The notes: generated by a model from the letters alone, not told the origin. DNA of 32,000 nucleotides from Acaryochloris marina MBIC11017 (GCF_000018105.1 NC_009925.1:6390001-6422000), one strand, 5' to 3'; shown: positions 5,739 through 28,274, numbered from the stretch's first letter. Program-made: numbers and translations.

Positions 5739-6866
5739 TTAGATTCCTTTGGCTTGAATTTGATATCGACCTTGCTCACCTCGATCAGATGTCGTTACTC
5801 CAATGTAATAGAGGCCATCTTGGGGGAGTGAGAGATTCAATTGAGCAGTGAAATCAGCGGGTCCACGGTCATCATTTTTGGCCACTGGAATGTATTTTGG
5901 TTTGGGGCTGGATTGATCCACAAAGAACAGCTGGAGAACCGGATTAAATTCATCACTTTTGAGGGTTAAAGTTACCGATTGTCCGGCTTTACCCTGGAAT
6001 TGGTACAAGTCAATAAAGGTTTGAGGGGTTAATTGGATATCTGTTTTTTCCAGACGGGCATTGAAGTTTCGATTGGCGAGTTGGGGAATCGATCGTTTCT
6101 GGCTTTGTTTGGGTAAGGTCGAAACGCGAGAGATTTTTCCGGATCGCATGGCCTTTAGAAAAGTGTGCAAGCGATCAACTGAAATGGCGAAGTTTATGCC
6201 ACTTTTGGTAACCCCAATGGGTCGGCCAGTGGGACTATAGACGAGACCCTGTAGATCTCCACTGAAATGGACGCCGACAACCTGTCCCTGGCGATTGAGA
6301 ATGGGACCACCGGAATTACCTGGATTAGTATTGGCACTATGTTGAAGTGTGCCATTTTGTTGGCTTATTCGGCTGACCATTCCCCTTGCCAGGGTATTCT
6401 GATAGTCCTCGGTTAGGGGTGTGCCAATCACGAAAATATCGTCTCCCACTTGAGTAGAGCCTGCTGGGGACAGGGGGATTGAGGGCAAATTCGTGAGGCC
6501 ATAGATTTTGAGTGCTGCTAGGTCTACGCCATGATGGGCAAAGCCAATCACATCAGCAGAGACCTGCCGACCGTCATTGAATTTGACGGTAACGATCCGG
6601 GGACCATTGGCAACGACATGGGCATTGGTAATAATCCAGCCATCAGCACTGACGATAAATCCACTCCCATGTCCTGAGCCGTTTTTAATCGTGACGACGG
6701 CAGGGCTCGCTTGCTGATAGATTTGTGTTGCTGTGGATTGGGCCGATTGGGCTACAGCCCGTTGGACCAGGGAGGGATGGAGGGAAATGGCGGGTGTAAT
6801 GATGCCTGCTGTCAACAATAGGGCGTTAATGGAGATGAATTTAGAAATCAGTTTTGGGGTGGTCAT
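5739..6866 (-). CDS. secreted S1C (HtrA/trypsin-like) serine protease with a C-terminal pre-peptidase (PPC) domain
   Basis: Triad contexts are ITNAHVV (His), VDLAALKI (Asp) and GNSGGPILNRQGQVVGV (Ser). The C-terminal ~90 aa look PPC-like (YQFQGKAGQSVTLTLKSDEFNPVLQLF...NDDRGPADFTAQLNLSLPQDGLYYIGV). The tracked ORF reaches 7070 but overlaps the upstream gene. ATG at 6866 (MTTPKLISKFISINALLLTAG...) gives a signal/anchor sequence. ATG at 6917 is an alternative. Confidence 0.85.
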   Translation of the reverse strand: MTTPKLISKFISINALLLTAGIITPAISLHPSLVQRAVAQSAQSTATQIYQQASPAVVTIKNGSGHGSGFIVSADGWIITNAHVVANGPRIVTVKFNDGRQVSADVIGFAHHGVDLAALKIYGLTNLPSIPLSPAGSTQVGDDIFVIGTPLTEDYQNTLARGMVSRISQQNGTLQHSANTNPGNSGGPILNRQGQVVGVHFSGDLQGLVYSPTGRPIGVTKSGINFAISVDRLHTFLKAMRSGKISRVSTLPKQSQKRSIPQLANRNFNARLEKTDIQLTPQTFIDLYQFQGKAGQSVTLTLKSDEFNPVLQLFFVDQSSPKPKYIPVAKNDDRGPADFTAQLNLSLPQDGLYYIGVTTSDRGEQGRYQIQAKGI

Positions 6867-7035: not shown

Positions 7036-10000
7036 TTATAGTGCAGGATCTGAAAAAAGTTGTTGGGCATCTGCGATTAACTGATCTCCCCAGAGATTTT
7101 GCTTGAGGAATTCAACATCTCGCAATCTAGAATCTTTTGTGAGGGCAAATTTGGCTGAGGCTATTGCTTGTTGTTGTTGACCGCTGTGATACAGAGCAAT
7201 AGCTAGCGCAAGTTGTGGTTCTGCCAACTTGTCGTCTAGTTCCATGGCTCTTTTGAACTGAGCGATGGCTAGATTTCGTTCCTCTTGCTCGTAGTAAATG
7301 AGGCCCATATTAATGGTGGGTATAATTGCTTTTTCGTCCAGCTCAACAGCCTGCTTAAAATCTTTGAGTGCATGCTGAGCGTTGTTCGTTAATGCATATA
7401 AAATTCCCCGTTTGGTATAAGCAACAGGTTGTTTAGGATTTAGCTCAATATATTTGCTGGCATCTGATATTGCTTCTTCAAAACGTTGGAGCCTTCGATG
7501 AGTCTGGCTGCGCAGGTCGTAAGCTGGAGAAGCCTGGGGGTTGAGTTCAATGATGGTATTAAAGTCAGATAGGGCTTGCTCATAGCGTTTGGTTTCGAGA
7601 TAGATTGGACCTCGCCCCGCATAGGCCAGGATATTTTTGGAATTAATTTCAATCGCTTTACTAAAATCTCCTACTGCGCCCTCTAAACGCTGCCAATTTA
7701 AGAAATTTCTCCCTCGGGCTTCAAAAAGCTCTGATACATAGGGTGATCGAGGATTTGGGTGGAGGACTATGGCTTGGGAAAAGTCCGTTTTGGCTTGCTC
7801 ATATTGCTGTAATTCACTATGGACCCTAGCTCGACTGCTGTACAAAATGCTGGTTCTTAGACCATTTTGGGGGGCTAACTCAATGGCTTTGGAATAGTCC
7901 GAAATCGCTTCTGAGTAACGTTTCAGTGATTTGTTAATCCCAGCCCGCACTCGATATCCTTCACTATCTTTGGGTTCAGTTTTGAGAGCGGTTTGAAAAT
8001 CTGCTGTTGCTTCTGCTTCCCGTCCCATTTTTTGGTAAAGTTGCCCTCTACTCACGCGGTACTTAGGGTTTTGAGGGGCAATCTCTATCGCTTTAGTGTA
8101 GTCAGCGAGTGCTTTGTCATACTGCTTTAAATTGATGTAGCTGATTGCACGGATATTATGCAAATTGTCAGTTTTGGCCAGGGGAATTCCGTTCGGATTA
8201 TCAGAGTTAGATCGAAGCTCAATGGCCTGAGTGAAATCGGCAATGGCCTGTTCAAATTTCTCTAACTCAACGTGTAAATACCCACGGGCAGTATAGGCAA
8301 ACCCTTTTTTCTGCTGAATATATTGGTTGTCAACTGCTGTGGCTTGGGGATAATCTGCATTCTTTATCGCTTGATTAAAGTTTGCGATCGCAGCTTCATA
8401 TTGCTGCAGACTTTGATAAGCTTGCCCTCGACCTGTGTAACTCTGCACATCTCTTGGGGCGAGCTGTATCGCTTGTGAAAAGTCGGCAATAGCAGCTTTG
8501 GGCTGGTTTAAACCAGCGTAGGCTTCCCCTCGACCTTGAAAATAGGTCGGATTTTGAGGATCCAGTTCAATGGCTTTGGACCAATCTGCGATCGCATTTT
8601 CATACTGCTGCCTGAGTAGATAAATATTAGCTCGACTCGATAGGTGGCTAGGAAGATTAGGTTCCAGTTGGATGGCTTGAGTATGGGCTGCGATCGCATC
8701 TTCATATCGTTTTAGTCCAAAGTAAACATGCCCTTGTCCAGAATAATGAGTGGTATTTTCAGGATCGATGCTGATGCCTTTTTTGAATTGAGCCAAAGCC
8801 TGCTCAAACCGTCGCTCAGCAAGATAGAGTTGCCCCAAACCACTGTAAACATACGAGTCTTGTGGATCGAGCTGGATCGCTTGCTGATGATCGGCTAAGG
8901 CCGCATCATAACGTCGCAATAATTGATGAATAACTCCACGGTTGGTGTAGGCAATCGCTAGCCTAGGATCAAGCTCAAGAGCTTGATTAACCGTAGCCAG
9001 AGATGCTTCAAACTGATCCATCCACATAAGCACCACACCACGATTGATATAAAATGCCGCTCTAGGGGCCTGGGCAATTGCTGCATCAATGGTTGCCAGG
9101 GCTTCAGGGTAACGCCGTAAACGACCTAAAACCGTGTATTTTTCATTGAGTAGTTGTGCATCATTTGCCTTAATTTGGAGCCCCTTCTCAATCGCAACTA
9201 GGGCTTGTTTAGGTTGTTTGAGATTTCGGTAAACGACGCTTAGCAGTTGCCAACTTGGTTTATAGGTTGGTTTCAACTGAACCACTTTCTGCAACGCCGT
9301 TTCAGCTGCGGAATAGTCTTCCTGAGCACGATAAACTAACGCTTTACCATACCAAGCTAGATGTACAAACTCAGGATTAAATTGAATCGCTTGCTCAAAA
9401 GCTGCTAAGGCTTCAGCATGTTGTTCCAACCGCCACAGTTGATTACCCCGCTCGATCCAGACTTCTGGTTTAGCATTGCTAGTCGGGACTTGTGCTTTGA
9501 GAACCGAAGCTTGCCATTCTTCTTGTTGCAGAGATGATAGGGTTGCTGGCGCTGTAGTGTTGATCTGCAAAGCATTTAAGTCAACATTGAACTTCGGCAT
9601 CACCCCCAACACTGAACTCGTGGGAATGCCTAAGCTCCATCCCAATTGGATGTTTATATTTCCCGTCTCAGATTCGCCTTCAGCTAATCCATGAATACCG
9701 ATGACCTGGCCTTGGCGATCAAGGACAACACCCCCACTCATCCCCCCGTAGGTGATGCTGGAATACACCAATTCATAGCCACCCCAAAAACTGGCTTGAG
9801 GGATGGAAATGACGTTATCAGCTTGTTGCATCCGATAGCTAGCAACTTCTAGAAAGCCTCGGTTTTTATCAAAAACTTTGCCTCCATTAAACTGCCAACT
9901 CGCTTCTGATTGATTGACTTTTGGAAAACCAGCGACGAACACCTCATCATCGGTTTTCGGGTTGTAGTCACCAAAGGCGGCAATCTCAAAGTTAGCCTCA

Positions 10001-11088
10001 CTTTGGAACTTGAAAATGGCCAGATCGACCCCTTCCTGACGTCGAATGGTGTTGGCATTAATCGGATGAGTTTGCCCATCTGGTGTGACCACAGAATAGC
10101 GCTGAGCAAGGCAAGGAGGCGAACCATTGGCAGTTTCACAGACGACATGATTTGCAGTTAGAACGGTATAGGTTTGCCCTTGCCTGGCAATAATGACACC
10201 AGAACCATTCGAACCACTAGAGCTGTCAATGCGAACCGAAATGTTTTTGGCTTTGGCTTCTAGGTCTGCAACCCATCCCTGTGACCGGGCCATTTTCACT
10301 GTCGATGCCACTAAGGGTTGGGGTAGGCCATAGGCGGTAAGGATATTGGGCTGGATTTGAGCTAGTACGGTTTGTAGAGAGATACCCCAGTTGAGTTGTC
10401 GGAGTTGTTGGATGGTCTCAGGGTTGAGAGAAGTCCCATCAACGGTTTCGTAGTTATCTACCACCGGAGATACACTCTGACCGTTGATGCCTACAAGTTC
10501 TCCAGTGGTTGTTTCTATAATGGGTCCTCCACTCATTCCCTGCTTAACATCACCTGGGTATCCCAATTGATATCCCCCTTTCAAAGGCTGATCGAGGATC
10601 TGTTGCAATGGATGAGTGCTGATTTGGAACTGTTGTGAGTCAGCTGCATAGCCCGCACTAGCGAGGGATTGTCCTGGGCGGGGGGTAAAGTTGCCTAGCT
10701 CTGGCAAGGTATAGGACTGATTGCCCTCGAAGGAGACTAGGGCCAGATCATAGCCAGATGAGAAAGAGTTCTGAACGAGAGTGGCAGTATGGGTTTGACC
10801 ATCATAGGTCTGGATTTGAATGGTTTTTGCTCCTTGCAGGATGTGTTGATTCGTCAATACCAGATAGGTGTTGTTCTGCTTAGAGATAAGAGTGCCACTG
10901 CCCTGATTGTTGTTTGTCCTGATCCGAACCGTAATTTCTTGGGTATAGGTGGTGATGGCATCAACAGACTGTGCTTGGGCAAGATGAGTTGCAGGGAGGC
11001 TACCGTGGGTAGGTTGAGCACTTGCGGAAGTACAGAGTGTTGTGGACAAGACCAACAGAGAGAGTAAAGATAATGTCCTTTGCATCAT
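7036..11088 (-). CDS. secreted dual trypsin-like serine protease fused to a long TPR array (paralogue 1)
   Basis: 1350 aa with signal peptide MMQRTLSLLSLLVLSTTLCTSASA. Protease domain 1 (about aa 50-205): LTNQHIL / YDLALVSF / GMSGGPII, with Ser186 codon at 10531-10533. Protease domain 2 (about aa 283-470): LTANHVV / VDLAIFKF / GGMSGGVVLDRQGQVIGIHG. From about aa 545 to the C-terminus there are roughly 23 34-aa TPR units (A..F..AI.L.P....AY..RG pattern). Confidence 0.9.
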   Translation of the reverse strand: MMQRTLSLLSLLVLSTTLCTSASAQPTHGSLPATHLAQAQSVDAITTYTQEITVRIRTNNNQGSGTLISKQNNTYLVLTNQHILQGAKTIQIQTYDGQTHTATLVQNSFSSGYDLALVSFEGNQSYTLPELGNFTPRPGQSLASAGYAADSQQFQISTHPLQQILDQPLKGGYQLGYPGDVKQGMSGGPIIETTTGELVGINGQSVSPVVDNYETVDGTSLNPETIQQLRQLNWGISLQTVLAQIQPNILTAYGLPQPLVASTVKMARSQGWVADLEAKAKNISVRIDSSSGSNGSGVIIARQGQTYTVLTANHVVCETANGSPPCLAQRYSVVTPDGQTHPINANTIRRQEGVDLAIFKFQSEANFEIAAFGDYNPKTDDEVFVAGFPKVNQSEASWQFNGGKVFDKNRGFLEVASYRMQQADNVISIPQASFWGGYELVYSSITYGGMSGGVVLDRQGQVIGIHGLAEGESETGNINIQLGWSLGIPTSSVLGVMPKFNVDLNALQINTTAPATLSSLQQEEWQASVLKAQVPTSNAKPEVWIERGNQLWRLEQHAEALAAFEQAIQFNPEFVHLAWYGKALVYRAQEDYSAAETALQKVVQLKPTYKPSWQLLSVVYRNLKQPKQALVAIEKGLQIKANDAQLLNEKYTVLGRLRRYPEALATIDAAIAQAPRAAFYINRGVVLMWMDQFEASLATVNQALELDPRLAIAYTNRGVIHQLLRRYDAALADHQQAIQLDPQDSYVYSGLGQLYLAERRFEQALAQFKKGISIDPENTTHYSGQGHVYFGLKRYEDAIAAHTQAIQLEPNLPSHLSSRANIYLLRQQYENAIADWSKAIELDPQNPTYFQGRGEAYAGLNQPKAAIADFSQAIQLAPRDVQSYTGRGQAYQSLQQYEAAIANFNQAIKNADYPQATAVDNQYIQQKKGFAYTARGYLHVELEKFEQAIADFTQAIELRSNSDNPNGIPLAKTDNLHNIRAISYINLKQYDKALADYTKAIEIAPQNPKYRVSRGQLYQKMGREAEATADFQTALKTEPKDSEGYRVRAGINKSLKRYSEAISDYSKAIELAPQNGLRTSILYSSRARVHSELQQYEQAKTDFSQAIVLHPNPRSPYVSELFEARGRNFLNWQRLEGAVGDFSKAIEINSKNILAYAGRGPIYLETKRYEQALSDFNTIIELNPQASPAYDLRSQTHRRLQRFEEAISDASKYIELNPKQPVAYTKRGILYALTNNAQHALKDFKQAVELDEKAIIPTINMGLIYYEQEERNLAIAQFKRAMELDDKLAEPQLALAIALYHSGQQQQAIASAKFALTKDSRLRDVEFLKQNLWGDQLIADAQQLFSDPAL
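8384..8391. repeat. HIP1 palindrome
   Basis: Exact GCGATCGC within TPR coding sequence. Confidence 0.95.
8588..8595. repeat. HIP1 palindrome
   Basis: Exact GCGATCGC within TPR coding sequence. Confidence 0.95.
8690..8697. repeat. HIP1 palindrome
   Basis: Exact GCGATCGC in the context GCGATCGCATCTT (codes ..DAIA.. on the minus strand). Confidence 0.95.
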
Positions 11089-11303: not shown

Positions 11304-14300
11304 TTACGGGGCCTGAAAGGCTGGCTCTGTCAGAAGTTTTTTTACATCTACAATCAAGCGTTCTCCCCAGAGATTTTGCTTGAGAAATGCGACTTCTTGA
11401 AATTTGGGATCTAGCTTGAGGGCAGATTGGGCTAGGGCAATCGCTTGTTTTTGCTGACCCCCGTGATAGAGCGCAGTAGCCAGGGCAAGCTGGGGTTCAG
11501 CTAGAGAACCATCAAGCTCAATTGCACGCTGGAATTGGGCAATCGCTTGCTTCCGATTCCCTTGCTCGTAATAAATTAGGCCCAAGTTGACGGTAGGGAT
11601 AATGGCTTTGGGGTTGAGGGTGATAGCCTGCTGAAAGTCATTCAACGCGAGGGATGGATTGGCCCCTAAGACATGTAAAATGCCTCTACGGGTATAGCTG
11701 GCTGCATTGGCCTGGCGTTCAATCCATTGATCTGCATCTGCGATCGCATCTTCTATACGATTCAACGCCTGATAAGTTCTACTGCGAAAGTCATAGACAA
11801 ACCCTAGCTTTGGATTGAGTTTAATCACGGTACTGAAGTCGGCCAAGGCGTCCTGATATTTCTGGGTTCCCAAGGATAGACGACCTCTACCGACATAGGC
11901 CATCACATTTTTGGGGCTTATGCCAATGGCTTGGTTAAAATCAGCCAAAGCATCATCTTGGCGCTGCCAACTTAAAAAGTTGTTACCCCGAGCAATGTAT
12001 AGGTCCGCCGCAAAGGGAACGGTGGGATTGGGAAGGAGGGCAAGTGCTTTTGAATAATCTAAATTGGCCTGTTCATATTGCTGCAAATTGCCATGCATTT
12101 GGGCGCGGCTACTATGTAACAGACTTCGTTGGAATGGGTTTTGGGGGGCTAACTCAATGGCCTTGGTATAGTCAGCCAGGGCTTCTGGATACCGTTTTAA
12201 TGATTTATAGACATCTGCTCGGACACCATACCCCTGACTGTCCGATGGTTCAGTCGTCAGAACCTTTTGAAAATCTGCATTAGCTTCAGTTTCCTGGCCT
12301 AATGTGCGGTAAATCTTGCCTCTTCTGATATAGGTGGATAGATCCTTGGGGGCAATTTCAATGGCTTGGGTATAGTCTGCGATGGCCTCTTGATATCGGT
12401 TTAAGGCCGTGTAATTCAGGGCGCGGGCGCGATAGAGATAGGTGACTTTAGGGGATAGTTCGATAGCTTGGGAAAAATCGGCAATGGCCTGTTCCAGCTT
12501 GCCAAGGTCGCTGTAAAGAAAACCCCGAGCGGAGTAGGCCAACCCCTTATACTTTTTATCTGTCTCTAATTTTTGGGGGAAATCAGCAACTTCAATGGCT
12601 TTGTCAAACTGTGCGATCGCACGTTGATACTGCCGCGCCCTTTGATACACCGTCCCCAGACCGATATAAGCCCGAGTATTATTTTTGTCCACCTCAATAG
12701 CTTGGGAGTAGTCGGCAAGGGCTGCTTCTGGCTGGTTCAAGGCGTCATAGGCATCACCTCGGTTGTTGAAATAAATTGGATCGGGCGGAGCCAGCCGGAT
12801 GGCTTTGGTTAAATCTGCGATCGCATCTTGGTATTGCTGAGTCGTGATATAAACGTTAGCCCGACTGAAGTAGTCATTGGCACTGTCTGGCTCTAGCTCA
12901 ATGGCTTTGGTATGGGCTGCGATCGCATCTTGATATTGTTTTTGGGCAAAATAGACAAATCCTTGGCCCGAATAATTGATGGGATTTTTGGGGTCGATGG
13001 CAATCCCTTGGTTGAATTGAGCCAGAGCTTCCTGATAACGGCCTTGGGAGTGATAAAGCATTCCTAAGCCGCCATAGGCAGAGATATATTGCGAGTCCAG
13101 GGCGATGGCCTTTTTAAGATCTGCAATCGCTTCCTTCGGACGTTTCAGAAAAGAGTACGTCACCCCTCTGTTCGTATAGGCAATGGCCATATTGGGGTCG
13201 ATTTCGATGGCCTGGTTAAGGGCAGTCAAGGTCTCTTCGTATCGATCCATCTTGATTAGCACCCAGCCGCGATTGATATAAAAAGCAGCCCGAGGAGCCT
13301 GGGCGATCGCGGCATCTATGGCTGCAAGGGCTTCTGAGTACCGATACAGTTCTGATAGAACAACATACTTCTCATTTAGTAACTGGGCATCCGTTGGTGC
13401 AATTTTTAATCCTGAATTGACGGCAGTTAAAGCCTGTTCTGGTTTCTTCTGGAGGCGATAGGCCGCACTCAGTACTTTCCATCCGGGCTTATAGTTTGGC
13501 TTGAGATTAAGAACTTTGAGTAAAGCCGTTTCAGCCGCAGGAAAGTTTTCCTGAGACCGATACACAAGTGCTTTGCCATACCAAGCCAAATGCACAAAAG
13601 AGGGATTCAATTGAATCGCCCGATCAAACGCAGCCAGGGCTTCCGCATATTGTTCCAGCCGCCAAAGCTGATTACCACGCTCGATCCAGACCTCTGCTTT
13701 AGCGTTACCTGTTGGTACATCCACCTGCAAAACCGAGGCTTGCCACTGAGCTTGTTGGCCCGCCGACAGGGGCGTTGGTGCAGTGGAACTGACCTGAAGG
13801 AGTTCCGGTGAGAGGTTGAACTTAGGCAGGGTTCCCAAAACCGAACTGGTGGGAATGCCTAAACTTAGCCCCAACTGAATCTTTAAATTCCCGGTTTCTG
13901 ATTCCCCTTCTGCCAGACCATGAATGCCAATCACCTGGCCCTGACGATCCAGAACGACTCCTCCACTCATCCCCCCATAGGTAATGCTGGTATAGACCAA
14001 TTCATACCCCCCTCCAAAGTTGGCTTGGGGAAGGGCAAAAACGGCATCATTTTGGCGGACGCTATAGCTGTTGACGCTGAGAAATCCATCGGTTTTATCG
14101 AATACTTTGCCACCGTTGAACTGCCAACGGGCTTCGGATTGATTCACTTTGGGAAAGCCAGCCACAAACACTTCATCATCTTTTCTGGGGTTGTAATCTC
14201 CAAAGGTGGCTAACGCATAATCCGCATCGCTCGTAAACGTAAAGATCGCGAGATCGACCCCCTCTTGGCGCTGAACGGTTTGCGGATCGACTTTAAAGAT

Positions 14301-15344
14301 CTGTCCATCTGGGGCAACAACGGCATACTGTTGCAGGGGACAAGGCGGTTTGCCATTGGGCGTTGCGCAGAGCACATGGTTGGCGGTTAGTACGGTGTAG
14401 GTCTTGTCTTGCTTGGCAATGAGTACTCCCGAGCCGTTGGCCCCAGTCGAGCTGTTGATCTGTAGGGTGAACGTTTTCGCTCTAGCTTCCAGATCTGCGA
14501 CCCATCCTTGAGCCTGAGCCGTTTTTACTGTAGAGGCCACCAGGGGTTGGGGTAAACCATAGGTTGCCAGTAGGTTTGGCTGAATTTGGGCCAGGACCGT
14601 TTGCAGGGGAATTCCCCAGTTCTGTTGGCGTAGGGTCTGAACCGTTTCAGGGGGAATGGCTTGACCGTCTAAGGTCTTGTAGTCATCCACGAGAGGGAAG
14701 GCACTCTGACCATTGATGCCGATCAGTTCCCCTGTGGTGGTTTCTATGATCGGCCCGCCACTCATGCCCTGTTGGATGTCTCCTGGATATCCCAGTTGAT
14801 ATCCCCCTTGAAGGGGCTGGTCAAGAATCAGTTGTACTTGATTGGGTCTGACTTGGAACTGTTGGGAGTCTGCTGCATAGCCTGCACTAATAACCGATTG
14901 ACCTTTGCGAGGGGTAAAGTTGCCTAGCTCAGGTAGCGTATAGGATTGGTTACTGACAAAGGTGACGAGTGCCAGGTCATATTTAGCGGGGAAAGGATTC
15001 TCTACCGCCTTAGCTGTATAGATTTGACCATCATGGGTTTGAATGTTTAGAGACTCTGCTCCGCGCAGAATATGGGCGTTGGTCAGCACTAGGTATTCAT
15101 TATCCTGCTTGGTGATTAGGGTTCCGCTCCCTTGATTGTTGTGGGTCTGAATCCGAACCGTAATTTCTTGAGCATAGGCGTTTACAGTGTTATCTGGATT
15201 GGCCTGGGCAATGGGAGCAACAATCGATGAATTAGGTGTTGAAGGGAGAGTTGCACTGATGGCTGGACGGAAGGCTGTCGATAAAATCAACAGGGGTAAC
15301 AAATCCACAAGAAAAGGTAAAACGGGTAGAAAACGTCGCAACAT
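11304..15344 (-). CDS. secreted dual trypsin-like serine protease fused to a long TPR array (paralogue 2)
   Basis: Same architecture as 7036-11088. By eye it is about 70-75% identical in the protease half and lower in the TPR half. Triads: LTNAHIL / YDLALVTF / GMSGGPII and LTANHVL / VDLAIFTF / GGMSGGVVLD. The tracked ORF starts at GTG 15362. ATG at 15344 (MLRRFLPVLPFLVDLLPLLILSTAFRPAISA) gives a more canonical signal peptide. Confidence 0.9.
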   Translation of the reverse strand: MLRRFLPVLPFLVDLLPLLILSTAFRPAISATLPSTPNSSIVAPIAQANPDNTVNAYAQEITVRIQTHNNQGSGTLITKQDNEYLVLTNAHILRGAESLNIQTHDGQIYTAKAVENPFPAKYDLALVTFVSNQSYTLPELGNFTPRKGQSVISAGYAADSQQFQVRPNQVQLILDQPLQGGYQLGYPGDIQQGMSGGPIIETTTGELIGINGQSAFPLVDDYKTLDGQAIPPETVQTLRQQNWGIPLQTVLAQIQPNLLATYGLPQPLVASTVKTAQAQGWVADLEARAKTFTLQINSSTGANGSGVLIAKQDKTYTVLTANHVLCATPNGKPPCPLQQYAVVAPDGQIFKVDPQTVQRQEGVDLAIFTFTSDADYALATFGDYNPRKDDEVFVAGFPKVNQSEARWQFNGGKVFDKTDGFLSVNSYSVRQNDAVFALPQANFGGGYELVYTSITYGGMSGGVVLDRQGQVIGIHGLAEGESETGNLKIQLGLSLGIPTSSVLGTLPKFNLSPELLQVSSTAPTPLSAGQQAQWQASVLQVDVPTGNAKAEVWIERGNQLWRLEQYAEALAAFDRAIQLNPSFVHLAWYGKALVYRSQENFPAAETALLKVLNLKPNYKPGWKVLSAAYRLQKKPEQALTAVNSGLKIAPTDAQLLNEKYVVLSELYRYSEALAAIDAAIAQAPRAAFYINRGWVLIKMDRYEETLTALNQAIEIDPNMAIAYTNRGVTYSFLKRPKEAIADLKKAIALDSQYISAYGGLGMLYHSQGRYQEALAQFNQGIAIDPKNPINYSGQGFVYFAQKQYQDAIAAHTKAIELEPDSANDYFSRANVYITTQQYQDAIADLTKAIRLAPPDPIYFNNRGDAYDALNQPEAALADYSQAIEVDKNNTRAYIGLGTVYQRARQYQRAIAQFDKAIEVADFPQKLETDKKYKGLAYSARGFLYSDLGKLEQAIADFSQAIELSPKVTYLYRARALNYTALNRYQEAIADYTQAIEIAPKDLSTYIRRGKIYRTLGQETEANADFQKVLTTEPSDSQGYGVRADVYKSLKRYPEALADYTKAIELAPQNPFQRSLLHSSRAQMHGNLQQYEQANLDYSKALALLPNPTVPFAADLYIARGNNFLSWQRQDDALADFNQAIGISPKNVMAYVGRGRLSLGTQKYQDALADFSTVIKLNPKLGFVYDFRSRTYQALNRIEDAIADADQWIERQANAASYTRRGILHVLGANPSLALNDFQQAITLNPKAIIPTVNLGLIYYEQGNRKQAIAQFQRAIELDGSLAEPQLALATALYHGGQQKQAIALAQSALKLDPKFQEVAFLKQNLWGERLIVDVKKLLTEPAFQAP
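11740..11747. repeat. HIP1 palindrome
   Basis: Exact GCGATCGC in the context GCGATCGCATCTT. Confidence 0.95.
12613..12620. repeat. HIP1 palindrome
   Basis: Exact GCGATCGC. Confidence 0.95.
12817..12824. repeat. HIP1 palindrome
   Basis: Exact GCGATCGC in the context GCGATCGCATCTT. Confidence 0.95.
12919..12926. repeat. HIP1 palindrome
   Basis: Exact GCGATCGC in the context GCGATCGCATCTT. Confidence 0.95.
13303..13310. repeat. HIP1 palindrome
   Basis: Exact GCGATCGC. Confidence 0.95.
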
Positions 15345-15830
15345 AGACTTTGGATGACTCACCGTAACAATGGTAAAGATAAACGTGACCTAGAGATTTA
15401 GATGTATATCGTTGACGAGGCTTTCCATATGCAACGTCTCAGTAAATTGCCGAGACTTTAAATTGATGCAGCAGATTTTTTGGCCGACTCTACTCCTTTG
15501 AGCGGCCTCATCACATGGTCATAGCTTTCAGTCCGATTACCTTTGAGATAGAGATCTGCTGCTGTCTTTAAATCAGATCGGTATGACTTTGTATGGTGAA
15601 TTTGTTTGCACTCACCAACAGATCAAGGTAGATGACCCAGAACGTTCCTTCATTGGATGGATGCATCAAGGAAATGACAGCAAGTTCAAAAGTGGTTTAT
15701 AGAAGTTGAGTGCTTATTCATTCCATCGTATAAGCTATGAAAAACTGGTGGAGAGAATGGCTAGGAGTCACTCTCTCGAAGAGATTTTGACGTGCCATCA
15801 TGGAGATTAGAGTCATTCTTTGATCCAAGT

Positions 15831-21401: not shown

Positions 21402-21459
21402 TAATGATGGATAGCCACTTTCAATTGAATTACTGTTGAATACTTGATGAGGTATTGGG

Positions 21460-21897
21460 ATGAACATATTAGTTGCATTGGACCTTTCCCCATCCTCTCA
21501 AGAAATTGTGAAACAGGTAGAAGAGCTGTTCAATTTACCGCATGTGAAATTTTGGCTATTACATGTTGCAGATCCTGAACCAGAATTTATTGGATATGCA
21601 GATGGTCCTCAATATATTAGGGATGCAGTAGCTCAGGAATTTCACGCAGAACATAAAGCTATACAAGCAATAGCAACAGAGATGCGAAATGCTCAAATTG
21701 ACTGTACAGCTTTACTAATTCAGGGATATTGCCCCGACACAATTTTGTCAGAAGCTCAACGCCTCAAAGCGCACCTTATCGTCATGGGTTCTCATGGTAA
21801 AAATATGATGAAACAGCTCATTTTGGGTAGCACAAGTCAAGCGGTCATACAGGATTCGAAGATCCCTGTGTTAGTGATTCCTACAAAAACTAACTAG
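21460..21897 (+). CDS. universal stress protein (UspA family)
   Basis: MNILVALDLSPSS..., WLLHV, LIVMGSHGKNMMKQLILGSTSQAVIQDSKIPVLVI. Confidence 0.85.
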   Translation: MNILVALDLSPSSQEIVKQVEELFNLPHVKFWLLHVADPEPEFIGYADGPQYIRDAVAQEFHAEHKAIQAIATEMRNAQIDCTALLIQGYCPDTILSEAQRLKAHLIVMGSHGKNMMKQLILGSTSQAVIQDSKIPVLVIPTKTN

Positions 21898-22118
21898 GAG
21901 TCAAATGCGATTAAAATTTACCCCTGGCACATTCGCTCATAGAAACAGTTGCCATAGGTAAGATATCTGCATAATGTGGACCAAGATAAATCTTTGGCCT
22001 GGAGGGGGGAGTAGCTCAATCAACCGCGTTCAGCCCTATACTTTACTGTTTTTCCTGGAAAGATATGTTGCTATCGGGAAAATTTTCTTCGTTTTGTTTG
22101 CAGTGATCATGCACAGAG

Positions 22119-22787
22119 CTAGGGGGAGGCCGACTCTTGAGCTTGGGATAGCGATCCGTCCCCTGGAGTAGACTTCATTTGAGTTCCTGCAGATTTTCGA
22201 CGACGCGGCGGGGTGCGATCGGTAATGGGAGCACGACGAAATAACTCAGGTATCGGAACTAAGGTCTCTCCGCCAGAATTTTGCAGCAGCATATCAGCCG
22301 TCTTGCCCTTAAGAATATCCATCAGTTGGTGAAGTAGCTGATTGGGATTATCGTGGGGCTTCATGGTAAACAACTGGCGACTGCTTTCGCAGATATCATT
22401 CTCCTGGGTTAGAGCACAGACAATTGGATAGCCATTGGAGTACCCCGTTGTTAGATATTTAAGCTGTTTGGCGTCATAAAACTGTTGGAATTTGGGGGTT
22501 ACCGCTGCACATCTTTTTTGGGGATTCCAGCCAAACCGAGAGAAAAACTCAGACTTCCAACCAATAATGCGAATATTGCCTTGCCGTTGGGGAATCCAAA
22601 CAAGGGTCGCTGGAATCTCAGAACCACTGGCTGGGTCATAGACCTCTTTGCAAAAAAAGGTCACTTGATCAGGAGAAGCTGTTTGCGCTTGAGAGACAGG
22701 GGTTTGCCCCCAAGCTGGCAGACTGCTCAATGAGAGGGTGACAGCCATTGTACTGGTTAAGCCCCAATGCCAAAGATGATGCGTCAT
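22119..22787 (-). CDS. secreted COP23 (circadian oscillating protein 23)-family protein
   Basis: Signal peptide: MTHHLWHWGLTSTMAVTLSLSSLPAWG. Core pattern with four Cys that I recognise as COP23: VTFFCKEV...IPATLVW...IIGWKSEFFSRFGWNPQKRCAAVTPKFQ...GYPIVCAL...ICESSRQLFTMKPHDNP. ATG at 22787 follows AAGGAG. The longer ORF to 22862 would overlap the upstream gene. Confidence 0.65.
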   Translation of the reverse strand: MTHHLWHWGLTSTMAVTLSLSSLPAWGQTPVSQAQTASPDQVTFFCKEVYDPASGSEIPATLVWIPQRQGNIRIIGWKSEFFSRFGWNPQKRCAAVTPKFQQFYDAKQLKYLTTGYSNGYPIVCALTQENDICESSRQLFTMKPHDNPNQLLHQLMDILKGKTADMLLQNSGGETLVPIPELFRRAPITDRTPPRRRKSAGTQMKSTPGDGSLSQAQESASP

Positions 22788-22833
22788 AAGGTGGTATCTC
22801 CTTGAATTTGGTAAGCGGGTCAGCTTCACTGTC

Positions 22834-25314
22834 TTATCGTTGCGTGATGATCTGATATGCACGGGGCAAAGACCGAATCGCCAGCCCCCCTATAGCAGTC
22901 GCTATAAAAGCAATGCCCGCTGGGATAACAGGCACCCATAGGCCGCCTCCATAGAGCAGAACCGCGCATATTCCCCCTAAACTAATGAATATGCAGCTAA
23001 GTAAGGCCCATTTTATCCTGCCAGAAGACAAAGTCGAGAGACTCATATTACCGAGACTTGCCCAAACTGCGATCCACAGGGTTTCTAACCAGGTCGGCCA
23101 AAAAACGATGGCAGGCCGTCCGTCTAACATAGTGCTCAAAAGCTGACTGGTGGCGTGAGCATGTAAATAGACCCCTGGAACCATCGCCCCTGGGCTTAAG
23201 GGGGTAAGGAAATCATCTTTCCCCGGTTCAGTCACACCAATAAGAACAATCTTGTCTCGAACGGATTCACCATTAAAGATAGGGGAGAGAACCTGCCGCA
23301 GGGATTTTTGCGGTGCAATTTTGGTGACTGCCCCTCGGGGAGTATTCGATAGGCGTCGGTAGTGGAGCATGATTTGGCGACCTGCCAGAGCTTCTCCTTG
23401 CTGGCTGCGGTAAGGTCCAGAGCTTTGCTGGAGCCAGTCGCCGAGTTGAGCATCCCCAACATTCACTTCTAAGTCACCTCGCTGGAGGTTTTTACAGTCA
23501 AAGTCTTTGTTCTGGGACTGTAGGTATTGCTTTGCAATCAGCAATCCAAAGCTAAAAGCATAGTCCTCTAATTGACATTGATCCAACGACGTTGTTGTCT
23601 GAGAGTTCCGGATGGCTCCAGGTGACAAGCACGGTGACCCTGGATCAAAACTGGCTTGGTAGAGATATCTTCGGACAATGTCCTGACTAGGTGTTGCTCC
23701 GTAATCTAGAGGAACATCACTAAAGCCAATTTGATTCAGCGGCACTTCTGGGGGTGGGGCGATGCCTGAAAATGCTTCTGCAGGACGGCTGGGGGTGCAA
23801 ATACCGATGAAGTTTGTCTGACGCAGTTGATTCACTAAAGCAGAATTGGAGGCAGGAATGGGGCGAAGAATATCCAGACCAATCACACTAGGTTGGTAGG
23901 TTTGCAATTTTTCCAGCAATTGAGCAAGAGCCTTGCCAGAGAGGGAACGTCGTTGGGAGGTTCCAGGAATAATGGACCGCCCCAACCCTTGCTGGTCTTG
24001 AAACTGCATATCCTGTTGATCAATGGTGATGATTAAGAAACGCTCATCCCATTTTTCTTTGGGCTTGAACCGTAACATCAGGTCATAGGTTTTCAGCTCG
24101 ATGGATTCCATCCATCCCATTTCACGGATGCCAATGACTCCTGCTGCCACGATTAGGCTAATGCCGAGGGCAATTCCCAGACGACGACGTTTAGGGGGAG
24201 ATGGACTGGGTTGTAGAGACTGCCAGGTTGGCGGTACTTCTGTGGGGTTGGGACAGACGACCGGAAGCCAACTGGCACAGGGATAGGTTTTCTCCCAGTC
24301 ATCATGCAAAATGCGTTGGGCTTGCTGGACTGAACTATAGAGGGATTGATTTTGAGTAAACGCGTCTAAAAAAGCGCGCAGAAATTTAGGAGAGATGGCA
24401 TCCGGGAGCTTCTCGCGCATAAAGACCAAATGAGGCAAAGCGATGTTTTTCTCAGCGGCTAGCTGATGGGCTAAACCAATACCATCACAGGAGTTGAAGA
24501 TGGCAAGACGTAACCCTTTGGCGGCTGCTTCTCGCAGCGTAAATCGAAAATCAGGAATCGCCAGTTGCTCTGTTTCATTGAGCTGAATCGCAAACCGCTT
24601 GCCATCTTCTGAACTGGCGCTATGTCCGCTGAAAAAGAGAATGTCCCAGCGGTCTTGCCGCAGTACTTGATTGAGCTGCTGTGGAGTAGGAGCAACCTGC
24701 CAGACAACTTCGGCTCCGGCTTGTCCGGCAATCTGGTCCAGTAATTGTTGGTCTTCGGGTAAATGCTGCAAATCTGTGGCATGGCCCAGGATCGCTAAGA
24801 TTCGAATCTTACCTGGGTGATGGTAGGGTCTTGGAACGGTGGTGTATTGGTTTAAGGCCAAGGCAACGGTGGCCTCGATCTTTTCCACCACAGACCATCT
24901 CTCCCAGGGCAGTCGTTGTAGCCAGACATTGTCGGTCTGTATCCACAGACAAGCTTGCTGGCCTGCCATTAACAAGGCTTGGCGAATCTCTTCTAAGTCC
25001 TCTGTATTGAGCCACTGGTTCAGCTGTTTCTCGACTTGGGACGCGGTGGTGTGACAGGCTGCGATCGCATCTTCTCGTTCCGAACTATGGGTAATCTGAT
25101 CCGGGTCGCTGTGGGTTAAGGCTCGGAATAAGCTTTCTAGGCTGGCGTAGCGTTGTTGCCACTGGCGATAAGTGGCTAATAAGGCTGGATTACTGGGTAA
25201 TTTCCCCCGAACAACAGTTTGAGGTAGAGACGGCAAGTTCTCTCGAATCTCAAGTTTGACGCGAAATCCCTGTTCGAAATCGCCATCCAATTCCAGAATT
25301 AGCAGTTTCGTCAT
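22834..25314 (-). CDS. membrane protein with N-terminal cytoplasmic CHAT (caspase-like) domain, TM helix, periplasmic CHASE2 sensor domain and C-terminal TM bundle
   Basis: 826 aa. CHAT-like region is about aa 165-345 (nt ~24280-24822). It has His in DILFFSGHS (codon 24622-24624) and Cys in LAIFNSCDG (codon 24487-24489). TM1 is LGIALGISLIVAAGVIGI (about aa 379-396). The CHASE2-like region starts at LKTYDLMLRFKP...FLIITIDQQ...VIGLDI and ends in about three hydrophobic helices (aa ~741-815). Only about 10 residues follow the last helix. Confidence 0.8.
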   Translation of the reverse strand: MTKLLILELDGDFEQGFRVKLEIRENLPSLPQTVVRGKLPSNPALLATYRQWQQRYASLESLFRALTHSDPDQITHSSEREDAIAACHTTASQVEKQLNQWLNTEDLEEIRQALLMAGQQACLWIQTDNVWLQRLPWERWSVVEKIEATVALALNQYTTVPRPYHHPGKIRILAILGHATDLQHLPEDQQLLDQIAGQAGAEVVWQVAPTPQQLNQVLRQDRWDILFFSGHSASSEDGKRFAIQLNETEQLAIPDFRFTLREAAAKGLRLAIFNSCDGIGLAHQLAAEKNIALPHLVFMREKLPDAISPKFLRAFLDAFTQNQSLYSSVQQAQRILHDDWEKTYPCASWLPVVCPNPTEVPPTWQSLQPSPSPPKRRRLGIALGISLIVAAGVIGIREMGWMESIELKTYDLMLRFKPKEKWDERFLIITIDQQDMQFQDQQGLGRSIIPGTSQRRSLSGKALAQLLEKLQTYQPSVIGLDILRPIPASNSALVNQLRQTNFIGICTPSRPAEAFSGIAPPPEVPLNQIGFSDVPLDYGATPSQDIVRRYLYQASFDPGSPCLSPGAIRNSQTTTSLDQCQLEDYAFSFGLLIAKQYLQSQNKDFDCKNLQRGDLEVNVGDAQLGDWLQQSSGPYRSQQGEALAGRQIMLHYRRLSNTPRGAVTKIAPQKSLRQVLSPIFNGESVRDKIVLIGVTEPGKDDFLTPLSPGAMVPGVYLHAHATSQLLSTMLDGRPAIVFWPTWLETLWIAVWASLGNMSLSTLSSGRIKWALLSCIFISLGGICAVLLYGGGLWVPVIPAGIAFIATAIGGLAIRSLPRAYQIITQR
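25061..25068. repeat. HIP1 palindrome
   Basis: Exact GCGATCGC in the context GCGATCGCATCTT (REDAIAAC in the CHAT protein). Confidence 0.95.
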
Positions 25315-25390
25315 AGATTTAATGATTCTCGAACCTGAAACAGAGGATTGTTATGAAACGGTTGGGTTGTCCCATATTTTATCTTTAGGT

Positions 25391-26527
25391 CTATACCTGA
25401 AAGGCTTCTGATACCGAAGCTGTTCCTAAACTGACCTGTATTGTGAAGCGATCACCCGTTGATGCATCAAAGCGATACCGAATAAATTCATCATCACTGC
25501 GGCTAATCACTTCCTTAAACACGTCTCCAGAATCCGTCAGAATTTTTAGGTGTAAATCGGGGGGCAAGGTTAACCGTTCACCTGTTGGATAGACACTGGC
25601 CTGAAGATTAATTCCCGACTCCATGGCAGAAATCGTCATCATTAGGGACACCTGGCAGCCCCCTAACTCAACCCCCAAGTCGATCAGTTTAGCCCGTTTG
25701 ATTTGGGTATCCATAAACGCCCCAACTAGCTGAGGGGCAATCAGCTCATTGATGGCCTGCCAGCCTTGCTCAAACTGATGATTTAACCATTGGCTGAGCT
25801 GAATGGCTTGGGAAACAGAGGGCTGGGGTTGCGAGAGTGTGATCGCATGTCGTCGCCATTGCTGATTTCCGAGAATGCTGGCCCAAGTATTAAAGCTAAT
25901 ATGTCGAGCTGCAAAGGGTAGTGGGGTTTCCCTTAGCAAGTCCCATGCATGGGTCAATTCATCTAAGTGTGGGGCAGTTAAGGCTGAAACTCCGTCCCTA
26001 ACTTGGGTCTCAGGAAAATACTTCTGCTGCAACCACAATAAATTTAGGGTTTCGGTTAACTGCTCACGCTCCAGCCTATAGGTTCGATTTCTGGGGATAA
26101 ACTGCCCCTTTTTCTTCACGGTTTTGTGCGTGGTCACGCCCCATAACCGCAACCTTCCTTCTTCTAAATCCACCTGGACTGCTACGAAATAATCGGCTGC
26201 CAAATTGGGACTATTGACCCATTCTTGAGGAACCTGTACTCCGTCTAAATCCCAAGCTCTACTGGGTAAACAAACGAAACGAAAATTGTCGGATTCAATT
26301 CCAATACCATTCAGCCCCAACTGCCACAGATCTTGTTGCAGGTCCAGTCCCTTAGCATTGGGAAAGTATTCACGAAAATAGGGCAAAACTACCGTTTCAC
26401 AGATTTGATTTAGCGCCATAAGATCATCAATCTGTGGGGAGAGGGGACCTGTTGTCTCGTTGGAAAGGATCAGAGGTTCAGGAAGTTCTAACCAAACATG
26501 GTCAGGAGTCAAATCATAGAGACTCAT
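25391..26527 (-). CDS. DUF1822-family protein (function unknown)
   Basis: The pattern VQVPQEWVNSPNLAADYFVAVQVDLEEGRLRLWGVTTHKTVKKKGQF...RTYRLEREQL matches my recollection of cyanobacterial DUF1822 proteins. ATG at 26525-26527 overlaps the sigma gene's TGA (ATGA). The tracked ORF start at 26572 would overlap by 49 nt. That this is a real gene is high confidence; the family name is moderate. Confidence 0.7.
   Translation of the reverse strand: MSLYDLTPDHVWLELPEPLILSNETTGPLSPQIDDLMALNQICETVVLPYFREYFPNAKGLDLQQDLWQLGLNGIGIESDNFRFVCLPSRAWDLDGVQVPQEWVNSPNLAADYFVAVQVDLEEGRLRLWGVTTHKTVKKKGQFIPRNRTYRLEREQLTETLNLLWLQQKYFPETQVRDGVSALTAPHLDELTHAWDLLRETPLPFAARHISFNTWASILGNQQWRRHAITLSQPQPSVSQAIQLSQWLNHQFEQGWQAINELIAPQLVGAFMDTQIKRAKLIDLGVELGGCQVSLMMTISAMESGINLQASVYPTGERLTLPPDLHLKILTDSGDVFKEVISRSDDEFIRYRFDASTGDRFTIQVSLGTASVSEAFQV
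26524..26527 (-). promoter_or_regulatory. ATGA stop/start overlap (translational coupling of the sigma factor and DUF1822)
   Basis: On the minus strand, ATG (26527-26525) of the DUF1822 gene overlaps TGA (26526-26524) of the sigma gene. Confidence 0.7.
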
Positions 26528-27711
26528 GACTCGTTGCCTCCTGACTGGGTTTGACAAATAGACCATAGCCATTGGCTCACTGCTGCATTAATAGTTTCTA
26601 CATCGTTGACCTGGAGAGAAATATGCAGATGATCCCTAGACCATTCCAGAAAGCGATCGGTCACAATGGTTTTTACTTTATTGAGGGTACGGGACACAGT
26701 GGATTGATTAATGCCGAGCTGTTGGCTAATGTCTTTTTGTTCTTGCCCTTCCCCGTAGTAAAGCTGGACGATCGTTTTGGTGTGGACATTTAAGCGATAG
26801 GTTTTGAGGTCTAAACCCTGCCATTCTTCCCGCAACCAAGCCAAGATTTTGGTATGAATCGCACCATAATCGTGAAGGGAGTCAGCCCTCTCTGGGTCGT
26901 CTGGGGCTGCAATTACATCAATCAGTTCCTGTTGCCCTTCCGTTGAGAGGGGCTGGTTGATAGAGACTTCGGCTGGAGCCATATATCGAAAGACCGCTTG
27001 ACCACTCGTTTTGACCCATTGTTGGATGGTCTCCAGCTCTTGAGGGTGCGGCATTAAGAGGTTGTAGGTAGACACAATATCTGACCATATTTCTGGAGAG
27101 GGGGCTTGCGTTTTTCCCTCTCGTTTAATTTTCGCTGGTTTATAAAGCTCCACATAGCAATCCCAGGCCTGTAGATGACACTCCAGCAGTGAGTCCTGGA
27201 TTCCCATCGCGATTAAGGCTTTGCGGACGCGGGTCTCGCTGGTATGGAGTAACAAACTCCAAAGGGTATGACCATAGCTTTTGTCCTGACGGCGGAGTTC
27301 ATCCAGAATGCGCCATTTGAGAAAGAAGCTAGCATAAGCCCCTAAGTTGGGATTAAGGATAGGATTGAAGGAGGTCAATAGTTTCTGGAAACACAGCACG
27401 CCTTGGCTAAACAAATCGAACAATGGCCGATCATTGCGATGTTGGTAGGTGGACCAAAGTTGAGATGCAACCCGATAACACGGCTCTTGGAGATAGGCAT
27501 ATAGATGATCTCGGCTGATCGTCTGGTTATGCTGTTGCCATTGCTGATGCCAGTAAGCGACCCAATATTGACTTTCGCCGCTACTCACCTGTTGGAGACT
27601 TCTTTCCATGTGGCGGCTTAATCGTGGATCAGTTTGCCAGCGTTGAAACCGTTCCTCCGACCACGCAATAAAGGTGGAGAATTGCTCAATCAGACTCTCT
27701 CGTTTATCCAT
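26524..27711 (-). CDS. atypical sigma-70-family RNA polymerase sigma factor
   Basis: 395 aa. Region-2-like: FDLFSQGVLCFQKLLTSFNPILNPNLGAYASFFLKWRILDELRR. Region-4 HTH: IVQLYYGEGQEQKDISQQLGINQSTVSRTLNKVKTIV. There is an N-terminal W/Q-rich extension of about 90 aa and a spacer of about 150 aa between regions 2 and 4. Confidence 0.8.
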   Translation of the reverse strand: MDKRESLIEQFSTFIAWSEERFQRWQTDPRLSRHMERSLQQVSSGESQYWVAYWHQQWQQHNQTISRDHLYAYLQEPCYRVASQLWSTYQHRNDRPLFDLFSQGVLCFQKLLTSFNPILNPNLGAYASFFLKWRILDELRRQDKSYGHTLWSLLLHTSETRVRKALIAMGIQDSLLECHLQAWDCYVELYKPAKIKREGKTQAPSPEIWSDIVSTYNLLMPHPQELETIQQWVKTSGQAVFRYMAPAEVSINQPLSTEGQQELIDVIAAPDDPERADSLHDYGAIHTKILAWLREEWQGLDLKTYRLNVHTKTIVQLYYGEGQEQKDISQQLGINQSTVSRTLNKVKTIVTDRFLEWSRDHLHISLQVNDVETINAAVSQWLWSICQTQSGGNES

Positions 27712-28274
27712 AAACAGTCAAGAAACGTTATGGGGGCGTCATCCTTGAAGAGTATCGTTGGCCCCTAATCACAATATGCAGATGGACTGATGCATACTCC
27801 GTTTTTACCTCATGATACTGGTCCCTTGTAGAAGGAATCCTGTTGGTACTTCCCTGGGTAGGGGCCTCTATCCGTCTATTCACCACCAGACTATTAAGTG
27901 GAGTCTATTTTCTTTATTGACGAAATATCTTGAGAAGTAAACGCAAAAACATTTAGAAAATATAAATAATTTTGCTTTGGATGATGTTTAAAAAGGGGAT
28001 TAACTGAAAAGTGGGTTGTTATATGAATATAAACAACCTGATCTGTCCTCAGATATACGGAAGACGGCTGACCCACACCACTAAATCTCTCCATAGTTAT
28101 ACGGAAAAACCCCTGAAAACCATAGACTTCAGTATTTCTACCGTTAGCTAATGGCGTCTGGGTTGGCACTATATTACTAACCAGCTACCGTTGCGAGCTG
28201 ACTGAGGATAGTAAGGGAGACTTCCTCAAATCACATCAAATGAATACCCCTTTCTTTTTTTGGATTAGGCAATC

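Follow-up and report, generated by a model that had tools for sequence, protein, structure and literature searches.

Classical CHASE2 receptors, among them adenylate cyclases, histidine kinases and GGDEF proteins, possess one transmembrane (TM) helix, an external CHASE2 domain and three further TM helices. Zhulin et al. reportedly described CHASE2, in 2003, as the ligand-sensing module of cyclases and kinases. What, then, could such a sensor control when no output domain follows its last helix and a caspase-like domain precedes its first? AM1_6338 of Acaryochloris marina MBIC11017 raises this question. Its gene lies in a 32,000-nt stretch of DNA (NC_009925.1:6390001-6422000), the whole of which is called the window below; positions are counted from its first nucleotide. 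An earlier note made from the DNA alone, referred to here as the original prediction, had described the protein as a CHASE2 sensor with a CHAT protease on its N-terminal side and had proposed irreversible, proteolytic signal transduction. Our analysis indicates that AM1_6338 probably controls a neighbouring sigma factor. To the reading as a whole, in which a periplasmic signal would activate the CHAT protease, whose action would release the sigma factor to transcribe a regulon marked by a promoter-like motif, we assign a probability of about 0.5.

Domain architecture of AM1_6338

The open reading frame (ORF) at 22834..25314 on the minus strand, on which all features of the gene described below also lie, encodes 826 residues and matches exactly AM1_6338 (ABW31268.1 / WP_012166445.1). 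The database annotation of ABW31268.1 is "CHASE2 domain protein". From the N to the C terminus, the protein comprises a small α+β domain, CHAT, one TM helix, CHASE2, three TM helices and a short tail. In Pfam, CHAT (PF12770) spans residues 102-349 (24268..25011) with an E-value of 3.9e-12 and a score of 46.7 bits against a gathering cutoff of 24, and CHASE2 (PF05226) spans residues 390-755 (23050..24147) with an E-value of 2.8e-52 and a score of 178.3 bits. The AlphaFold2 (AF2) model of the protein had a mean predicted local distance difference test (pLDDT) score of 85.4. The Pfam, hydropathy and AF2 data bear out the proposed combination of an N-terminal CHAT domain with CHASE2 in the absence of a C-terminal output domain, and the coordinates, the reading frame and the codons originally assigned to the catalytic dyad were also right. 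In contrast to the classical receptors, in which a cyclase, kinase or GGDEF output is C-terminal, AM1_6338 carries its output, a predicted protease, at the N terminus.

Membrane topology

Conservation and charge were evaluated in 43 full-length homologues sharing 37-85% identity. The first TM helix of AM1_6338 (TM1; residues 378-396; 24127..24183) has a Kyte-Doolittle hydropathy of 2.15, coincides with a helix at residues 375-398 of the AF2 model and is preceded by a KRRR stretch. According to hydropathy and the AF2 model, the later TM helices (residues 741-813; 22876..23094) occupy residues ~741-760, 765-790 and 796-813. The last of these is followed by a basic tail of 12-13 residues, encoded together with the stop codon at 22834..22875; the median tail length in the homologues is 14 residues. 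The original prediction had placed TM1 at residues ~379-396 and some 10 residues after the last helix.

Averaged over the homologues, the N side of TM1 has a net charge of +3.05; the corresponding values are −1.09 on its C side, +2.05 in the TM2-TM3 loop, +0.23 in the TM3-TM4 loop and +2.42 in the C-terminal tail. Because this distribution follows the positive-inside pattern, the protein is expected to be oriented N-in, with CHAT predicted to be cytoplasmic and CHASE2 periplasmic, which is the placement of CHAT on which the original prediction depended. With one TM helix before CHASE2, three after it and a domain predicted to be extracytoplasmic, AM1_6338 has the layout of the CHASE2 family. 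Within CHASE2, Cys506 (codon 23797-23799) and Cys562 (codon 23629-23631) are invariant in 43 of 43 homologues. This pair could form a periplasmic disulfide, which would suit an oxidising compartment.

Caspase-like fold and His/Cys dyad of the CHAT domain

The predicted catalytic residues of CHAT, His231 (codon 24622..24624) and Cys276 (codon 24487..24489), proved to be invariant in all 43 homologues and to lie within the invariant motifs GHS and NSCDG, respectively. In the AF2 model, His231 follows the strand at residues 225-229 and Cys276 ends the strand at residues 270-277, the canonical positions of the caspase-hemoglobinase fold. A full-length profile-profile comparison of the CHAT-CHASE2 family with canonical TPR-CHAT proteins failed to align them. 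When the alignment was trimmed to CHAT, the dyad fell on the His and Cys of the canonical TPR-CHAT proteins, the latter in the motif LSAC, with a weak statistic (E = 0.043).

We then compared the AF2 model with the PDB using Foldseek. The matches included human separase (7nj1, E = 4.6e-9), Csx29 of the Craspase complex (8eex_B, E = 1.3e-8), a SAVED-CHAT filament (8tl0, E = 2.2e-8), the Myxococcus anti-sigma factor DdvA (8rot_A, E = 2.5e-6) and many caspases, including caspase-3, -7 and -8 (E ~5e-4 to 2e-3), all at a probability of 1.00. None of the 50 matches listed was attributable to the CHASE2 part, and a sequence search of the PDB with the family profile found no relative. The similarity to separase and caspases that the original prediction had anticipated is therefore present in the predicted structure. 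Together, these data argue that the CHAT module is a caspase-like, predicted protease with a complete dyad.

The sigma factor/DUF1822 operon and its cassettes

AM1_6338 is preceded on the minus strand by AM1_6340 and AM1_6339, in that order. AM1_6340 (26524..27711) encodes a sigma-70/ECF-type (extracytoplasmic function) sigma factor of 395 residues, which scores 57 bits with TIGR02937 (cutoff 42.9) and contains Sigma70_r4. AM1_6339 (25391..26572; database start at 26527, giving 378 residues) encodes a DUF1822 protein (PF08852, E = 2.5e-59). The stop codon of the sigma factor gene abuts or overlaps the start of the DUF1822 gene, and the ORFs are paired likewise in the homologous loci L001, L079 and L083. 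No TM segment was found in AM1_6340 or AM1_6339. The DUF1822 protein is accordingly predicted to be cytoplasmic and is a candidate partner of the sigma factor or substrate of the protease.

A scan of species-representative genomes confirmed at least 595 CHAT-CHASE2 loci, of which 78 were sampled for their gene neighbourhoods. DUF1822 is encoded immediately upstream of CHAT-CHASE2 in 76 of these 78 loci, the other two having no upstream DNA. A sigma-like gene lies upstream of DUF1822 in approximately 55 of the 78: in 21-23 loci it encodes a long sigma factor of ~400 residues similar to that in the window, and in 34 a short, weakly ECF-like protein of ~220 residues. Downstream of CHAT-CHASE2, a secreted DUF928 protein is encoded in 68 of the 78 loci, and genes for a secreted TPR-CHAT protein and a TPS-domain protein are often nearby.

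The AF2 model of the DUF1822 protein (pLDDT 81.5) contains an α+β domain, a helical middle part and a C-terminal, eight-stranded β-sandwich. DUF1822 has been called a TPR protein (Kaur et al., PMC8195603), an assignment that this model does not support. Two loops modelled with low confidence, at residues 236-239 and 269-273, are possible cleavage sites.

Two types of cassette can be distinguished by what accompanies this trio. In the COP23 type, represented by the window and its closest relatives (L079, L080, L081 and L083; 50-93% identity), COP23 takes the place of DUF928; trypsin-TPR and trypsin proteins stand in for TPR-CHAT in L079, L081 and L083. In the window, the COP23-family secreted protein (22119..22787, minus strand; PF14218, E = 7.8e-37) comprises 222 residues from the ATG at 22787 and has an N terminus that resembles a signal peptide and is common to its homologues. 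To our knowledge, COP23 is known only for its circadian oscillation in Cyanothece. Further along the same strand are the genes for secreted trypsin-like + TPR protein 1 (11304..15362; 1352 residues) and its paralogue, protein 2 (7036..11088; 1350 residues). The two are ~68% identical at the nucleotide level, and each possesses a signal peptide, two trypsin-like domains (Pfam Trypsin_2) and a long TPR array. Last comes a secreted trypsin-like + PPC protein (5739..6866, minus strand), for which Pfam domains and a signal peptide were also identified. The mechanically called ORF of this protein (5739-7070, minus strand; 443 residues) is probably too long: the signal peptide begins at Met69 (nt 6866) and the motif described below lies just upstream, so Met69 is likely the true start. 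In L081, which is 93% identical, the order sigma factor, DUF1822, CHAT-CHASE2, COP23 and trypsin-TPR is uninterrupted, with the counterpart of trypsin-TPR protein 1 directly after COP23. The genes of the COP23-type cassette are also contiguous in L079 and L083, and trypsin-TPR equivalents accompany the cassette in all three of these loci.

In the Nostocales type (L003, L013, L036, L082 and about 60 more), the positions of COP23 and trypsin-TPR are occupied by DUF928, secreted TPR-CHAT and often a TPS-domain (filamentous-haemagglutinin-like) protein. We considered whether COP23 and DUF928 are divergent orthologues. A profile-profile comparison detected no homology between them, and this possibility was therefore rejected in favour of analogous replacement. 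In four Nostoc loci (L024, L026, L054 and L057), two full cassettes, each comprising a short sigma-like gene, DUF1822, CHAT-CHASE2 and DUF928, are arranged head to head.

A shared promoter-like motif

Comparison of the regions upstream of the cassette genes revealed a bipartite motif, TGCATAT-N12-14-(C)AACGAT(A). The window contains six copies of TGCATAT-N12-14-AACGAT, all on the minus strand, which is the strand of the cassette genes, and all 29-75 nt before start codons. By comparison, there were no hits in any of 100 dinucleotide-preserving shuffles, and none was expected. The first copy (27754-27780) lies 42 nt before the start of the sigma factor gene and is kept in L081, L001, L002 and L080. 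The second (26602-26627), 29 or 74 nt before DUF1822, is located in the 3′ end of the sigma factor gene; it is present in L081, L001 and L002 and degenerate in L079 and L083. The copy preceding COP23 (22836-22861; 48 nt to the ATG) has a counterpart in the same position in L081 and another before the COP23 gene of L080. That preceding trypsin-TPR protein 1 (15408-15433; 45 or 63 nt) is likewise at the same place in L081. The remaining copies precede trypsin-TPR protein 2 (11151-11177; 62 nt) and Met69 of the trypsin-PPC protein (6896-6922; 29 nt), the latter with equivalents before trypsin genes in L079 and L083.

Relatives with 50-93% identity, Microcystis among them, thus have the motif at matching places. 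In L081 there are five copies, each on the strand of the genes, and the Microcystis loci L001 and L002 carry it before both the sigma factor gene and DUF1822. Its spacing suits −35 and −10 elements approximately 16 nt apart. No sigma-70 consensus promoter was found upstream of the sigma factor/DUF1822/CHAT-CHASE2 operon, and a sigma-70 consensus scan of 21800-28400 was uninformative, with promoter-like sites fewer than in shuffled sequence and terminator-like sites about equal in number. On the simplest reading, the motif is probably a promoter for the sigma factor that the cassette encodes, and this factor would thus regulate its own expression. As in the Craspase and DdvA-DdvS modules discussed below, a predicted protease and a sigma factor are encoded together at this locus, here with promoter-like motifs.

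The motif copy upstream of COP23 shares bases with the codons of the C-terminal tail of AM1_6338, RAYQIITQR (22834-22875). The sequence of the tail may have been shaped by this DNA signal.

The N-terminal domain and the EACC2-CHAT unit

Kaur et al. (eLife 2021, PMC8195603) described proteins in which a constant N-terminal α+β domain, EACC2, is followed by a caspase domain and a variable C terminus. The original prediction had left an N-terminal module of ~160 residues unassigned. Since the Pfam CHAT domain begins at residue 102, this module is shorter, at ~100 residues (residues 1-100; 25015..25314), and in the AF2 model it contains strands at residues 4-12, 16-24 and 33-39 plus helices. Judged by the published description, it corresponds to EACC2. 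Residues 1-370 are conserved as one unit of ~370 residues across proteins with other partner domains. For example, the unit is 34% identical (E = 3e-58) to the N terminus of a 1567-residue nSTAND1+WD40 protein. An exhaustive HMMER search with the unit returned 1342 cluster representatives at E ≤ 1e-30, in which it aligned over its full length, at either terminus of proteins of 386-1763 residues. The partners sampled were nSTAND1+WD40, WD40 alone, pentapeptide repeats and none. The constant α+β/caspase unit, the variable partners and the sigma factor and DUF1822 neighbours all agree with the EACC2-caspase description, and residues 1-370 of AM1_6338 can be provisionally identified, by that description, as EACC2 + caspase.

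An N-terminal output on CHASE2, which the original prediction had set against the usual C-terminal one, is not confined to AM1_6338. In P0119, a metagenomic homologue of 1017 residues, an adenylate/guanylate cyclase domain was found between CHAT and TM1. By its domain content, P0119 has two different predicted cytoplasmic outputs, both N-terminal to CHASE2.

Distribution and previous descriptions

A word-indexed search returned 1182 protein hits with an E-value of at most 1e-5. Of the 120 listed, nearly all combine PF05226 with PF12770, and every named source among these is cyanobacterial. The 78 sampled loci are likewise almost all from named cyanobacteria, and one record is titled only "uncultured bacterium". 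The architecture has also been noted in print. Jiang et al. (2010, PMC2853523) and Asplund-Samuelsson et al. (2012, PMC3501461) reported a metacaspase-CHASE2 fusion in Trichodesmium erythraeum, with a topology of 1+3 TM helices and the protease inferred to be cytoplasmic. Kaur et al. (2021, PMC8195603) described EACC2 + caspase + CHASE2 proteins adjoining a sigma factor and DUF1822, and a review of cyanobacterial caspase homologues depicts CHASE2-linked caspases as death receptors (PMC7475262). The architecture is therefore known: it is widespread among cyanobacteria, and computational studies have described it together with its neighbours. Because it has been catalogued and discussed, the domain order adds nothing new, and the novelty that the original prediction implied does not hold up against these 1182 proteins, at least 595 loci and earlier publications. 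What is new here is the regulon motif, which is of interest together with the cassette variants.

Other features of the window

Between the COP23 and trypsin-TPR genes, the cassette in the window is interrupted by an opposite-strand block of 6.6 kb (15503-22099). Its genes specify two Usp proteins, a P-type ATPase, a HAMP histidine kinase and a response regulator of the OmpR type. This block is absent from the 93%-identical L081 and is an insertion into the cassette. Divergently oriented upstream of the sigma operon is a gene for a calpain-type Peptidase_C2 protein of 683 residues (29213-31264, plus strand). It was rejected as a member of the system: the segment that contains it (28792-31436) is absent from L081, and a homologue lies near only 2 of the 78 loci. 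Just past the last trypsin gene is a DDE transposase gene (DDE_Tnp_1_5 / DDE_Tnp_1; 4543-5472, minus strand), and the cassette edge therefore adjoins an insertion sequence. Scanning the window for Rfam families and tRNAs gave no hits.

Discussion

In the mechanism that we propose, AM1_6338 would be a four-pass inner-membrane protein with the EACC2-like and CHAT region as its only cytoplasmic module and CHASE2 as its periplasmic one. A periplasmic cue would act on CHASE2, and the signal would pass through the TM helices to switch on CHAT, probably via an altered oligomeric state. CHAT would then cleave a protein that inhibits or tethers the sigma factor in the cytoplasm; DUF1822 would be the likeliest target, with AM1_6338 itself as a possible one. 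The released sigma factor would transcribe from TGCATA-N(12-14)-AACGATA promoters, which would drive expression of the sigma operon, COP23 and the three secreted trypsin-like proteases, of which two carry TPR arrays. The resulting response, in the envelope or outside the cell, would be irreversible and self-amplifying. By analogy, proteolytic signalling by CHAT-CHASE2 is reasonably inferred, and it is made more credible by the conserved sigma factor/DUF1822 operon and by the published cases that link CHAT proteins to sigma factors.

In Craspase, Csx29, one of the top structural matches of AM1_6338, cleaves Csx30 and thereby frees the autoregulated, ECF-like CASP-sigma (Strecker et al. 2022, PMC10028731). 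Both loci pair an established or, in our case, predicted signal-activated CHAT protease with a sigma factor of the ECF-like kind, and both encode a soluble protein that inhibits this factor or, in our case, may do so. However, Craspase is triggered by target RNA bound to the CRISPR effector Cas7-11 and its protease is soluble, whereas AM1_6338 presumably responds to a periplasmic signal via CHASE2; moreover, Csx30 is unrelated to DUF1822. A SAVED-CHAT/PCaspase cascade also cleaves a putative sigma factor. Finally, DdvA of Myxococcus xanthus is a TPR-CHAT transmembrane anti-sigma factor for DdvS (Bernal-Bernal et al. 2024, PMC11506125). DdvA and AM1_6338 share a structural match in CHAT (8rot_A), and in both cases a transmembrane CHAT protein controls, or in AM1_6338 would control, an ECF sigma factor. 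The layout of DdvA is nevertheless inverted: its CHAT domain, in which the dyad is incomplete, lies in the periplasm and its zinc anti-sigma domain in the cytoplasm, whereas in AM1_6338 the dyad is complete, CHAT is predicted to be cytoplasmic and CHASE2 to be periplasmic.

Proteins of the same architecture have been published as well. Kaur et al. (PMC8195603) had already proposed, for the EACC2 family, that stimulus-induced caspase activation works through the coupled ECF sigma factor. The variable C terminus of their proteins can be CHASE2 with TM helices, and the sigma factor and DUF1822 are neighbours as in the window. Their account is brief and computational, and does not include COP23, the trypsin-TPR genes or the promoter motif. 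The Trichodesmium protein (PMC2853523, PMC3501461), likened here by its description, also has an N-terminal caspase homologue, a C-terminal CHASE2, 1+3 TM helices and a protease predicted to be cytoplasmic, but it was published as a single curiosity under the label of metacaspase.

Several observations weigh against the proposed mechanism. Its weak point is DUF1822, whose model has no informative structural relative: a Foldseek comparison with the PDB returned only generic Ig-like β-sandwiches and no likeness to an anti-sigma factor or Csx30. In ~20 of the 78 loci, no sigma factor homologue was found within 8 kb. A search for the motif in Nostocales-type loci was negative, and the regulon is therefore documented for the Acaryochloris/Microcystis subclade only. 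The motif copy upstream of DUF1822 is itself coding sequence, and its conservation may reflect constraint on the protein. Because some proteins join the EACC2-CHAT unit to nSTAND1/WD40 or pentapeptide modules that are intracellular, the C-terminal part may not be the sensor in every case. Finally, what is known of the family comes from computation.

The variety of partners of the EACC2-CHAT unit is also the starting point for a different account, in which an intracellular cue, for example infection, would trigger self-cleavage of EACC2+CHAT in an EACC-type conflict or abortive-infection system and the CHASE2/four-TM part, released or altered by this cut, would be a membrane effector rather than an external sensor. 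A constant unit that occurs at either end of so many different partners, among the 1342 representatives, fits such an arrangement. Moreover, Kaur et al. named EACC2 by analogy with EACC1 conflict systems and proposed activation as an autopeptidase (PMC8195603). The cassette, however, comprises secreted proteases and a sigma factor, not toxins, and there is no conserved phage or mobile-element context around the loci examined. PADLOC found no match to a defence system, returning generic protease and TPR hits and a marginal BovA hit for CHAT-CHASE2 (E = 2e-4), and CHASE2 is, by its domain description, a ligand-sensing module of cyclases and kinases. We regard this account as unlikely.

Alternatively, the CHAT-CHASE2 protein could itself be the anti-sigma factor. 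The EACC2/CHAT region, with or without DUF1822, would hold the sigma factor at the membrane, and signal-induced autoproteolysis in trans within a dimer would free it, leaving DUF1822 as an accessory protein or chaperone rather than the substrate. The structural match to DdvA, a transmembrane CHAT anti-sigma factor for which autoproteolysis in trans has been proposed, is consistent with this arrangement, as is the lack of an anti-sigma-like fold in DUF1822. By contrast, the CHAT domain of DdvA is periplasmic and its active site incomplete, and DUF1822 is the most tightly linked gene of all, above the sigma factor. The chance that this alternative is right appears small.

The protease could also act on targets unrelated to the sigma factor, in general proteolysis or in programmed cell death of the kind proposed for membrane-bound orthocaspases, with the linkage to the sigma factor and DUF1822 reflecting co-expression only. 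In reviews, caspases linked to CHASE2 are suggested to set off a death cascade in the cytosol, but the review concerned offers no experimental support for one in cyanobacteria (PMC7475262). The very well conserved order of sigma factor, DUF1822 and CHAT-CHASE2, with abutting ORFs, and the common promoter-like motif indicate instead a single functional unit, and we consider action on unrelated targets rather improbable. Least probable is that CHAT is a non-catalytic scaffold: the Pfam score is modest and DdvA shows that CHAT active sites can be incomplete, but the dyad of AM1_6338 and its flanking motifs are invariant down to 37% identity and align with the canonical dyad.

Release of the sigma factor by CHAT-CHASE2 would also admit a broader, tentative view that we think has perhaps less than an even chance of being correct. 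In it, the trio of sigma factor, DUF1822 and CHAT-CHASE2 would represent a widespread, cyanobacteria-specific class of sigma factor control, in which a CHASE2 signal leads to caspase-like cleavage of a new type of inhibitor, DUF1822, without regulated intramembrane proteolysis, and in which a motif-marked regulon of secreted, TPR-linked proteases and a small secreted protein, in the Acaryochloris type trypsin-TPR proteins and COP23, drives feed-forward extracellular proteolysis. DUF928 and TPR-CHAT might then be the Nostocales-type counterpart of this regulon, to which they are linked by gene neighbourhood only.

With the architecture itself on record, the function remains the interest: at least 595 loci in species-representative cyanobacterial genomes encode members of this computationally described family. 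If the proposed mechanism is correct, CHAT-CHASE2 would relay an extracellular cue directly across the membrane and so activate a sigma factor irreversibly, by caspase-like action. Such a route would parallel Craspase and DdvA but would serve envelope or extracellular physiology. The motif defines a concrete, testable regulon and would tie COP23 and the giant secreted trypsin-TPR proteins to this pathway.

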